Assembly (NCBI GenBank): GCA_963708105.1
Contig: OY970186.1
Location: 751,790 to 815,789, forward strand
DNA from: an uncultured Actinomycetes bacterium
Lineage (GTDB): Bacteria; Actinomycetota; Acidimicrobiia; IMCC26256; PALSA-610
Direction of reading: 5' to 3'
Length of the DNA: 64,000 nt
The notes beneath the pieces are model-generated. The model saw only the letters and a program-made list of their open reading frames with translations. It did not search any database and was not told where the DNA came from. This document shows, one piece after another, positions 3,045 to 60,898 of this stretch; the first letter of the stretch is position 1; each line of letters opens with the position of its first letter. The position numbers were made by a program, and so were the translations under genes.

Positions 3045-3120
<76 letters not shown>

Positions 3121-22546: not shown

Positions 22547-22639
22547 CGTTGTCTCCTCGCCGGATTCGAAACAACATCCGTCGAGGGCACCGCAGCCGGC
22601 ATACGAACGGTTCCCTACACGATTGACGTTTGTCGATCA

Positions 22640-22688
22640 GTAGGGACCATCAGCCGATGAAGGCGGTTAAAGGCGAGTCCCATCGCCG
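22640..22688 (-). ncRNA. Fluoride riboswitch (crcB motif)
   Basis: Minus strand GGCGATGGGACTCGCC-TTTAACCGCC-TTCATCGG-CTGATGGTCCCTAC; TAAACT -10 at 22695-22700; upstream of CLC-F. Confidence 0.93.
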
Positions 22689-22717
22689 AACAGCAGTTTA
22701 CTACGGCGATTCGTGGG

Positions 22718-25203: not shown

Positions 25204-25839
25204 GTGCCGAGTCTTGTCGTGCGCGTCTGGCTTCCTGATCGACCGGGTGCACTCGGTCTCGTCGCGTCACGTATCGGCGCGATCGGCGGAGACATCGTCG
25301 GTATCGACGTGCTGGAACGCAGCGAACACGTCGCCGTCGACGAGTTCGCCGTGCTGCTCCCCGATCGCGATCTCGTCTCGTTGCTCGTCCGCGAGATCGA
25401 GGAGGTCGACGGCGCATCGGTCGAGGAATGGCGTGAGGTGGCCACGTTCCCCGACCCGCGTCTCGACGCGCTCGAATCGGTCGAACACCTCTCCGGCGCG
25501 ACATCGCGCAACGAGCTCACGCAACGCCTCGTCGACAGTGTGCGCGAGGAGTTTTCCGCCGACTGGGCGGTGATGTTGCACGGCAACGTCGCGCTCGCGA
25601 CATCGGGCGCCGAGGTCCCCGATCCGTCGGTACTGGAAGCACTCGCCGCGGGAACCGCCGCGTCGCCGATCGTCGCCGCGGGCGACGCCGGCCCCGACGA
25701 TCTTGCGGTCGCGCCCCTCCCGAACGGCGATGTCGTGTTGCTCGTCGGCCGCGACGGACACCCGTTCCGCCGCCGCGAACGTCGCCAACTCCTCGCCCTC
25801 GCCCGCATCGCCGACCGCGTCGGCACAATCCTGGGCTAG
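25204..25839 (+). CDS. ACT domain-containing protein
   Basis: LPDRPGALGLVASRIGAIGGDI; TAACCT 6 nt before GTG. Confidence 0.8.
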   Translation: MPSLVVRVWLPDRPGALGLVASRIGAIGGDIVGIDVLERSEHVAVDEFAVLLPDRDLVSLLVREIEEVDGASVEEWREVATFPDPRLDALESVEHLSGATSRNELTQRLVDSVREEFSADWAVMLHGNVALATSGAEVPDPSVLEALAAGTAASPIVAAGDAGPDDLAVAPLPNGDVVLLVGRDGHPFRRRERRQLLALARIADRVGTILG

Positions 25840-25880
25840 ACAGCGGCATCGCCGATCGCGTCGGCCCAATCCTGGGCTAA
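25805..25880 (+). repeat. 35-bp tandem duplication of the ACT gene 3' end
   Basis: 25805-25839 vs 25846-25880, 32/35 identical. Confidence 0.9.
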
Positions 25881-25948
25881 AGGAGCGACAGCGGAGCCTG
25901 TGCCAATACTCGCGAAGCCGCTCTGGCACAGGCGCAGCGCGAGCGACC
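25881..25948. repeat. 68-nt structured dispersed repeat, copy A
   Basis: 54/68 identical to reverse complement of 60831-60898; 10-bp stem GCCTGTGCCA/TGGCACAGGC. Confidence 0.85.
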
Positions 25949-25953
25949 AATTT

Positions 25954-26931
25954 TCATCTTGCGTTTTCGTCGAGCTCTTTGTCGAGGCGTTGGTAGTGCT
26001 CGTAGCGCGCGGGGTCGAGCGCGCCGGAGGCGATCGCGGCTTGTACCGCGCAGTCGGGCTCGGGTCCGTGTGAGCAGTTCTTGAACCGGCACTGCGCGGC
26101 GAGGGCTTCGATGTCGGAGAACACGCGGCTCAGGCCGTCGTCGGCATCCCACAGCGCGACCGAACGCAGACCGGGCGTGTCGACGAGCCAGCCGCCGCCC
26201 GGCAGCGCGACCAACTCGCGCGCGGTGGTGGTGTGGCGGCCGCGCTGATCGTTCGTGCGCACCTCCCCGACCGCCTGCACCGTGTCGCCGACGAGCCCGT
26301 TCACGAGCCGCGACTTCCCCACTCCGGACGCACCGATGAGCGCGATGGTCCGATCGGGATGCGCAAATCCGCGCAGCCGCTCGAGCCCGGCGCCGGTGAC
26401 CGCGCTCGTCGCCACGACCTCCACTCCGGCGGCCGCACCGCGCGCCAACTCGACCGCGCGCTCTACTGCGTCGGCATCGACCAGATCGGCCTTGGAAAGC
26501 ACCACGATCGGCACGGCACCGCTCTCGAATGCGAGGACGAGCTCGCGTTCGAGCCGCCGCATGTTCGGGCCGTTGTTCAACGCCTGCACCACGAATACGA
26601 GGTCGACGTTGGCGGCCACGACCTGCGGGCGACGCGCCCGGCCTTCCCCTGCGTCGCCGCGGACGAACGCCGAACGACGCGGTAACGCGGCCGCCACCTT
26701 GCCGTCCGCGACGAGGATCCAGTCGCCCGTTGCGACGGTGTGTCCCGCGAGCTGGGCGCGCACGGTACCGGCCGCGGTCAGCACCGTGGCCCACCCGCGG
26801 TCGACGCGCGCGACGCGTCCGGGAACCGCGTCGGGACGGGACAACGCCGCGGCTGCCGCCGCGAAATCCGCGTCCCAGCCCAGGCTGGTCAGGGCGACGG
26901 GTGCCGTCGCCGGGTCTTCCGTCGCCGGCAT
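25954..26931 (-). CDS. rsgA: Ribosome small subunit-dependent GTPase A
   Basis: AANVD, SKAD, GASGVGKS, GRHTT, DTPG, CRFKNCSHGPEPDCAV. Confidence 0.93.
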   Translation of the reverse strand: MPATEDPATAPVALTSLGWDADFAAAAAALSRPDAVPGRVARVDRGWATVLTAAGTVRAQLAGHTVATGDWILVADGKVAAALPRRSAFVRGDAGEGRARRPQVVAANVDLVFVVQALNNGPNMRRLERELVLAFESGAVPIVVLSKADLVDADAVERAVELARGAAAGVEVVATSAVTGAGLERLRGFAHPDRTIALIGASGVGKSRLVNGLVGDTVQAVGEVRTNDQRGRHTTTARELVALPGGGWLVDTPGLRSVALWDADDGLSRVFSDIEALAAQCRFKNCSHGPEPDCAVQAAIASGALDPARYEHYQRLDKELDENAR

Positions 26932-60752: not shown

Positions 60753-60784
60753 AAGGAGGAAGAAGTGTACCGGTGGAGGTCAGG

Positions 60785-60843
60785 TACGGTCGTTCTCGCG
60801 GTCCGTATGGGTCGCTCGCGCTTTTCTATGGGTCGCTCGCGCT
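60785..60843. repeat. 21-bp-period tandem repeat (TATGGGTCGCTCGCGCT x2 plus one degenerate copy)
   Basis: 60806-60822 identical to 60827-60843; degenerate copy from 60785. Confidence 0.85.
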
Positions 60844-60898
60844 GCGTCTCGGGCAGAGCGGCTGCGCGGGTCGTGCCCGAGGCTCCGATGCCACTCCT
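60831..60898. repeat. 68-nt structured dispersed repeat, copy B
   Basis: Reverse complement aligns ungapped with 25881-25948; stem GTCTCGGGCA/TGCCCGAGGC. Confidence 0.85.

Follow-up and report, generated by a model that had tools for sequence, protein, structure and literature searches.

What is the short structured sequence that lies twice, on opposite strands, within one stretch of an uncultured Actinomycetes genome, and how does a sequence of this kind come to occupy such different places? We analyse the whole 64,000-nucleotide stretch, called the window throughout, together with its source genome (G000; 4,695,024 bases, 68.3% G+C) and the genomes of related species. A preliminary description, made from the letters alone, had quoted the two sequences at window positions 25881-25948 (+) and 60831-60898 (-), where we find both, and had read them as a mobile hairpin family of REP or MITE type or as a motif under selection for structure. 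Among the components of bacterial genomes, small structured repeats rank with the least understood, and to our knowledge few such families have been defined outside proteobacteria and mycobacteria.

Two copies of one element in the window

Aligned without gaps, copy 1 and the reverse-complemented 60831-60898 share 54 of 68 bases, as had been reported; over all window 68-mers of both strands identity to copy 1 averages 19.2 (sd 3.7), and the best value after copy 2 is 37. The three double changes described for the stem (G-C to C-G, T-A to G-C and C-G to G-C) are all present, AGCCGCTC and the terminal 15 nt are the same in both copies, and the stem of copy 2 carries one additional C.A mismatch that had gone unmentioned. 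The surroundings are also as stated: copy 1 lies between convergent neighbours, a weak ACT-domain ORF (+) and rsgA (-), copy 2 between a divergent pair, trigger factor (-) and a short-chain dehydrogenase (+), and each copy is flanked by a tandem duplication (a 34-nt repeat and a 21-nt array). With the purine that precedes GGAGCG and a MATAR tail the element extends a little beyond the 68 nt first given, to about 72-73 nt.

We resolve both copies with a covariance model, R1 (72 positions and 12 pairs, from 32 copies, two of the window and 30 of related genomes), and a plain MAFFT alignment of 32 sequences, A1. Copy 1 comprises the purine, a 67-nt core and the 5-nt tail AATTT (25881-25953, +), and matches R1 with 94.2 bits (E 1.5e-16) at G000:777671-777742, that is, window 25882-25953. 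It opens with a conserved 5' block, GGAGCGACAGCGGA (25882-25895), in the invariant or near-invariant columns of A1. The 5' arm of the main stem, GCCTGTGCCA (25896-25905), forms an inverted repeat with the 3' arm, TGGCACAGGC (25924-25933), supported by A1 pairing (pairs 15-25/50-59) and by RNAalifold. Between them sits an apical mini-hairpin, GCGAAGC, closed as a C-GNA-G triloop (25912-25918; A1 pairs 33-39 and 34-38, and RNAalifold), and the conserved 3' block GCAGCGCGAGCGACC, the same in both copies, follows at 25934-25948. The tandem duplication that adjoins copy 1 (25805-25879, +) repeats 34 nt at 41-nt spacing (25805-25838 and 25846-25879, 94% identical) and duplicates the upstream ORF's 3' terminus, stop codon included. 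Its joint with copy 1, GACAGCG, resembles the element's own 5' part, and a shorter version of the duplication is found in the closest relative, G014.

Copy 2 has the same layout on the other strand, with the purine, a 67-nt core and the tail CATAG (60826-60898, -), and scores 82.2 bits against R1 (E 5.5e-14) at G000:812615-812686, or window 60826-60897. Its main stem pairs GCCTCGGGCA (60874-60883, -; A1 pairing) with TGCCCGAGAC (60846-60855, -; A1 pairing), the latter involved in the C.A mismatch, and its mini-hairpin is GCGCAGC (60861-60867, -; A1 and RNAalifold). The flanking array, 2.6 units of the 21-nt repeat GCGCGAGCGACCCATA... (60788-60842, -), overlaps the 3' end of copy 2 and repeats the element's 3' end plus tail; the ortholog alignment gives G014 one unit fewer. 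In the same spacer, directly before the trigger factor ATG (60752, -), the pyrimidine-rich sequence CCGGTACACTTCTTCCTCCTT (about 60753-60775), which is not Shine-Dalgarno-like, is conserved in all nine aligned congeners. Its reverse complement reads AAGGAGG followed by GTG, opening a 374-codon ORF that runs through copy 2 into the dehydrogenase gene.

A dispersed family with conserved ends and a free stem

The claim of a dispersed family is borne out on a larger scale than two copies could suggest. Two rounds of nhmmer, after BLAST, find 48 copies in the whole of G000 at E<0.1, and R1 gives 52 matches at E<=0.01 among 150 candidates scored, four of them shortened forms, with hundreds more in congeners. 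Within the window R1 matches only the two given copies.

The unit measures about 72-79 nt, the nhmmer copies in G000 spanning 66-77 nt. It begins with a base that is mostly a purine, followed by GGAGCGRCAGCGGA, a stem of 10-11 bp around an internal loop, GCAGCGCGAGCGACC, and a tail M-R-T-A-R that often runs on purine-rich to ..RTGG. The stem is G+C-rich, free in sequence and kept in pairing. The internal loop, of about 18-25 nt, holds the conserved core CYC-GCGNAGC-CGCWC, replaced by CGGCGAAGCCCGC in a second subfamily and by GCCGAAGGC in a third. At the apex, C-GNA-G is found in 106 of 113 unique centres and the full GCGNAGC in 89 of them, while N is free (A 47, C 30, G 24, T 5). The ends repeat each other imperfectly and in direct orientation (GAGCGRC ... 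GAGCGAC), not as inverted repeats. A reading of the unit as a small ORF was rejected, because the lengths observed (66-77 nt) do not keep to multiples of three.

Shorter architectures accompany this form. In several congeners the prevailing unit replaces the long stem by a short central hairpin that contains tandem G.A mismatches, and a 22-nt module, GGAGCGGCAGCGGAGCCGACCG, stands one to three times ahead of the 3' block; two to three internal tandem modules occur at L008, L009, L012, L024, L034, L039, L051, L054, L055, L057, L062 and L066. Minimal units of 25-33 nt consist of the two ends alone and are also found in tandem. A scan of G000 identifies its solo ends as short or deleted forms and not as the ends of a longer element.

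A covarying hairpin kept on one strand

Support for the stem comes from comparison among copies. On A1, stem and triloop are paired in 94.5% of cells versus 70.5% in shuffles, none of 500 reaching the observed value; sliding the partner by 1-3 columns reduces pairing to 21-45%, and nine of ten stem pairs show changes on both sides. The larger alignment A2 (144 model-aligned matches, 135 distinct), which is fitted to R1 and so biased towards its pairing, gives 92.1% versus 67.2%, with both-side changes in all ten stem pairs; one pair of the mini-hairpin also flips there (G-C 78, C-G 15). The model-aligned matches hold 77 distinct stem sequences, and RNAalifold, applied unprompted to A1, recovers this stem together with the two-pair triloop hairpin. 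The covariation first noticed between two copies is thus strong by all three routes, with the qualification that counts made on related paralogous copies overstate the number of independent events. An outer helix between the conserved ends, predicted by folding, was rejected, since all its pairs are invariant and show no covariation; the purine (A/G) at position 7 has no compensating partner in it.

Folded singly, the two window copies have energies that are not unusual against shuffles (RNA z -1.66 and +0.28; DNA z -1.23 and -0.53). As single copies fold no better than shuffled sequence, the case for structure is the covariation across copies.

The mismatches that remain in the stem carry a further signal. 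Read in the orientation GGAGCG...GACC, the model alignment contains 51 G:T and 12 A:C mismatches, and a model-independent count, pairing the arms ungapped from the conserved ends in 86 of the 113 unique centres (the others are bulged or of the short-hairpin type), contains 28 and 10. The two classes are expected to be equal where no strand-specific constraint acts, so the excess of G:T indicates that one particular strand, as single-stranded DNA or RNA, matters. The hairpin is kept on that one strand. GCGNAGC has itself been named an extraordinarily stable DNA mini-hairpin in one published account (PMC13037366); that motif is a physico-chemical observation and, unlike the repeat family, no genetic element, yet its sequence is that of the element's apex and hints at folding as single-stranded DNA.

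Gain, loss and local rearrangement

Copies are gained and lost between species. Both window copies are common only to G000 and G014, its closest relative at about 90% identity; locus 1 is empty in eight other congeners and locus 2, which aligns poorly, in seven, with a short unrelated spacer in place of the element. We mapped the flanks of 35 G014 copies onto G000 and aligned 13 of these loci: 11 are without an element in G000 and two hold hairpin-less short forms. In the hairpin-less forms of G000 at 2764661 and 561258, the hairpin has been deleted between short direct repeats. No target duplication is evident in 11 comparisons of filled and empty sites, whose flanks are only about 88-94% identical, so that the junctions are blurred. 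A TA target duplication was rejected because TA precedes GGAGCG in a minority of copies only.

Arrays also grow and shrink locally. G000 has arrays of three copies at period 82 and of two copies at period 77, relatives have arrays of up to 4-5 units, and orthologous loci of G000 and G014 differ in array size (1 versus 3, and 3 versus 1). Spacers are identical inside one array and different between arrays, a pattern that favours local duplication over repeated insertion as the origin of arrays. Partial units stand beside full ones in G000 at 812620, 1967102, 2706612 and 4277901, and these, with the deletions between short direct repeats, fit slippage at the hairpin. Two head-to-head doublets in G000, 1967097-1967293 and 2111077-2111313, have their members 47 and 89 nt apart and are REPIN-like; the first abuts the 3' end of an apparent tRNA gene on the other strand, and the second is conserved in G014 (L027).

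Comparison of orthologous copies raises a question about the covariation itself. In 14 ortholog pairs of G000 and G014 the ends are almost constant and the centres diverge (overall identity 0.87), some pairs differing by two double changes in the stem. Metagenome contigs with flanks 80-90% identical indicate that one site can carry another hairpin subfamily, or a full unit where G000 has ends alone or a solo 3' end. The compensatory pattern could accordingly stem from replacement of whole centres, by gene conversion or re-insertion by way of the invariant ends, or from template-switch correction of quasi-palindromes at replication, instead of selection acting on each copy. Differing centres at orthologous sites (G000 2903075 versus L134, 412547 versus L143), a hairpin-less form facing a full unit (3640980 versus L145), a solo end likewise facing a full unit (1691110 versus L138), and short forms in G000 where G014 has full copies are all as expected from replacement, and so is a non-orthologous copy that is closer than the ortholog in seven of 12 pairs. 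The ortholog nevertheless remains closest in four of the 12, with one tie. Because the closest paralog is usually one consensus-like copy (1401207), fast divergence from a consensus-like ancestor fits equally well, and pair closeness leaves the two undecided. Correction of palindromes, for its part, would give no one-strand excess of G:T over A:C. We regard this origin of the pattern as unlikely on balance, though it deserves serious weight.

Placement at stop codons and between genes

The element has multiplied to intergenic sites. Gene calls made with a crude codon-bias caller put 55 of the 57 arrays in relatives between genes, and they place the 52 G000 copies in divergent-type (18; upstream gene facing away, downstream gene co-oriented), convergent (14), co-directional sense (13) and co-directional antisense (7) settings; the corresponding figures for the 57 arrays are 8, 18, 17 and 14. 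Of 121 unique 5' junctions, 47 have a stop triplet between -6 and +1, versus 6.6% of random genomic 7-mers; the stop is often a TAG that shares the element's first G. Where the upstream gene of relatives is co-oriented, its stop lies no more than 5 nt from the element in 18 of 35 cases, and between convergent genes the unit often spans the entire gap from stop to stop. Such placement could reflect a target preference or the survival of harmless insertions only.

Along the G000 sequence, 24 of 52 matches lie in 2.0-3.0 Mb, a fifth of the genome, beside the cumulative GC-skew minimum (1.96 Mb), and none in 3.0-3.5 Mb; orientation shows no clear bias with respect to the replication arms that GC skew defines in G000. 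One copy, G000:2553308-2553380 (L084), lies inside a long, strongly coding open frame (2553025-2555199, +), for which Pfam gives only a sub-threshold SLATT_2 match downstream of the copy; either the copy inserted in frame or the gene caller fused two genes. The completeness of G000 is 51.5%, its median called gene piece is 519 nt, and the crude caller leaves 675 adjacent same-strand gene pieces in different frames. Marker completeness is 51-72% in the few-contig assemblies (G000, G001, G002, G006 and G014) versus 86-99% in many-contig congeners, which suggests, with the crudeness of the gene caller kept in mind, that the few-contig assemblies contain many indel errors that break reading frames.

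Position at gene ends invites the idea that the element is mainly a cis-acting structured RNA, a co-transcribed hairpin that guards the mRNA 3' end or stops transcription, its spread being secondary. Protection of mRNA 3' ends or a stop to transcription has been shown for some REP and ERIC copies. For other small repeats, co-transcription and effects on mRNA stability are reported in a published overview (PMC3184786). The wobble asymmetry, by which one particular strand folds, agrees with such a role, and so do the 18 of 35 copies that begin within 5 nt of a co-oriented gene's stop and the many that fill convergent gaps. The mixed orientation speaks against it in both samples (18/14/13/7 of 52 and 8/18/17/14 of 57), since transcription of many copies would have to be antisense or separate from a gene. 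No T-run follows the stem, GCAGCGCGAGCGACC standing there instead, and a search of 25600-26200 for intrinsic terminators returns no terminator-like site; the patchy occurrence within the genus, at 0-68 copies per genome, is unlike that of a conserved regulatory RNA. We consider a mainly cis-acting RNA rather improbable. A host-level role in transcripts is, as the main reason for upkeep of the hairpin, about equally doubtful, and it would be compatible with a repeat family of REP or MIRU kind.

A lineage-restricted distribution

Of the 20 other species in the GTDB genus, 14 have R1 matches (a tally that includes G015, an unpublished genome). Counts span 0-68 per genome, with 48-68 in G000, G016 and G014 and none in the six congeners G002, G006, G008, G010, G011 and G020. 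Beyond the genus, weak matches, one to five each, occur in four of 42 genomes and three of 19 genera of the same family, and 24 genomes from 22 other families of the order give no match. The exact two-end pattern, searched in one genome per species across 185,579 species, is found at 70 loci, all in ten MAG assemblies labelled Actinomycetes, Actinomycetota or Acidimicrobiia; metagenome contigs of soil type add 30 loci, none closer than about 93% to G000, and hence no filled and empty site to compare at strain level. IMG/VR viral contigs hold no match to the exact pattern, and BLAST finds none in plasmid and phage collections.

Comparison with Rfam, on which the novelty of the element had been made to hinge, returns no family matching it. 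At gathering score the window yields only a tRNA (3045-3117, +) and a fluoride riboswitch (22634-22696, -; 48.2 bits, threshold 34), and in E-value mode the best match around copy 1 has E 3.4 and 16.5 bits versus a threshold of 45.5 bits. The end strings GGAGCGGCAGCGGAG, GCAGCGCGAGCGACC and GAGCGACAGCGGAGC are absent from the literature searched.

A search of sequencing runs lists no RNA run, and the DNA runs contain at most 0.08 of the sampled words. Four runs give short contigs of relatives only, at about 88-95% likeness, and no junction of a fresh insertion. In runs X1, X6 and X8, contigs join an element 3' end to an element 5' end across 3-9 other letters; these are tandem arrays in other organisms.

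Candidate mobilizing genes

None of the genus's 21 genomes, G000 included, encodes the HUH/RAYT partner envisaged in the preliminary description, as judged by the Y1_Tnp profile (PF01797), for which the control is positive in six of 14 known genomes. TnpB is likewise found in none of five genomes. A reverse transcriptase occurs in one of the 21 (G007:C60:19642-20283, L131; E 1.3e-41), which rules out routine retro-mobilization. IS110 is absent from G000 and present in the element-free G006 and G008; G016 has 14 IS110-type transposase matches. A Y2 search had a control that was positive nowhere, so its result says nothing.

Conservation of the ends far beyond that of the centre, and the existence of minimal two-end units of 25-33 nt, singly and in tandem, would also be expected of a repeated protein-binding DNA site, with a regulator or nucleoid protein bound to GAGCG-rich ends and the element neither mobile nor an RNA. 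We hold this to be very unlikely, given that neighbouring genes share no common class, distances to gene starts are not fixed, some congeners have zero copies, and the conserved pairing of the centre would be useless for duplex binding. A classical REP/REPIN moved by a RAYT (a Y1 HUH enzyme), or a miniature IS200/IS605 derivative, would share the G+C-rich extragenic hairpin, the many copies, the strand-specific folding and the three head-to-head doublets of G000 (1967097/1967219, 2111077/2111241 and 2504895/2504987), yet with no Y1 or TnpB gene in the genomes named above, mostly singletons or head-to-tail arrays in place of inverted doublets, and no conserved GTAG-type head before the stem, it is largely refuted.

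Relation to known repeat families

The element nonetheless shares much with the REP, BIME and REPIN sequences of proteobacteria. Like them it is a short, G+C-rich extragenic hairpin in tens to hundreds of copies, specific to a species or genus, often placed after gene ends, occurring singly, as doublets or in clusters, and retaining pairing while its sequence drifts. It is an extragenic imperfect palindrome in many copies (52 matches, a 10-bp covarying stem, 55 of 57 arrays intergenic). It differs in being accompanied by no RAYT gene (0 of 21 genomes), in having GCGGA and not GTAG before the stem, and in the rarity of inverted doublets (three, head-to-head, among 52 G000 matches), which head-to-tail arrays outnumber across the family. 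Its conserved parts are long, asymmetric flanks of direct-repeat kind and not the palindrome, and its hosts belong to another phylum.

MIRUs form tandem arrays of variable copy number, as does the element, with units of about 72 nt, some 50 copies and arrays of 2-5 units; its intergenic units fall within the MIRU range of 40-100 bp. That range is taken from an overview which describes MIRUs as intergenic and numbering about 40-50 in a genome; they contain G+C-rich inverted repeats and may be present or absent at homologous sites (PMC3184786). The same overview places MIRUs inside operons, co-oriented, with small ORFs overlapping the neighbouring genes and tetranucleotide direct repeats at filled sites (PMC3184786). 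The element, in contrast, has mixed orientation, lengths of 66-77 nt that are not multiples of three, and no flanking repeat that we can see; the comparison is with MIRUs as described.

With ERIC/IRU and other MITEs (Correia, RUP, Nezha) the element has in common that it is a small, non-coding, structured intergenic repeat, polymorphic between relatives. Terminal inverted repeats and TA or other target duplications are given for ERIC/IRU and other MITEs in the overview (PMC3184786). The ends of the element, GGAGCGRC... and ...GAGCGACC, are direct, and its internal stem is the only inverted repeat; by the usual criteria the element is not a MITE. It probably forms a family not described before, akin in its general character to REP, MIRU and ERIC.

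A proposed mode of spread

We propose, with a probability of roughly 70%, that the element represents a new, lineage-restricted family of REP/MIRU-like repeats, spread by a putative trans-acting activity dependent on both the ends and the folded strand. This activity would colonize new sites by recognizing the invariant ends together with the hairpin of one strand, presented as single-stranded DNA or as a transcript, and it appears to favour sites right at stop codons. Arrays and deletions would then arise by slippage or by unequal recombination between short direct repeats. The hairpin may be kept for spread, for a host-level role at 3' ends or in intergenic regions, or for both.

Several observations weigh against this proposal and are limitations of the study. 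No mobilizing gene accompanies the family in the genomes searched (Y1/RAYT 0 of 21, TnpB 0 of five, reverse transcriptase one of 21, IS110 not associated), and the element is without terminal inverted repeats and, at flanks about 88-94% identical, without a consistent target duplication. A lagging-strand mechanism acting on single-stranded DNA might predict an orientation bias between replication arms, and none is seen. Single copies fold no better than shuffled ones, the covariation counts come from kin copies, and the gene calls are crude. Of the initial reading as a REP/MITE-like or structure-selected hairpin, the dispersed copies and the covariation stand; inverted ends, a target duplication and an HUH/RAYT partner were not found, and the compensatory changes may owe as much to copy replacement or palindrome-correcting repair as to selection on structure.

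Asymmetric ends, no inverted repeats or target duplication, a hairpin and strand-specific folding are traits usual for single-strand (HUH) transposition. The element has asymmetric conserved ends, a hairpin that folds on one strand, no inverted ends and no evident target duplication. One might go further and picture a non-autonomous mobile element of a new type that uses neither HUH enzymes nor reverse transcription; the activity moving it would read the folded strand and the direct-repeat ends, target stop codons and perhaps exchange the central hairpin as a 'cassette' among resident copies. We put this forward as a speculative and improbable version.

Implications for genome biology of the genus

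To specialists a family of this kind will come as no surprise, because many lineages have private repeat families. Its copies are a source of annotation error: lying against stop codons, they can lengthen gene ends or double them, as happens at copy 1. The family is clean and easily modelled, with invariant ends and a covarying stem, and it turns over quickly within one uncultured soil genus. It may serve as a strain-typing marker and as a check on assembly for these MAGs, comparable to MIRU-VNTR in mycobacteria, and as a model for the spread of hairpin repeats where no RAYT is present. A new mobilizing activity, if true, would be of wider interest.
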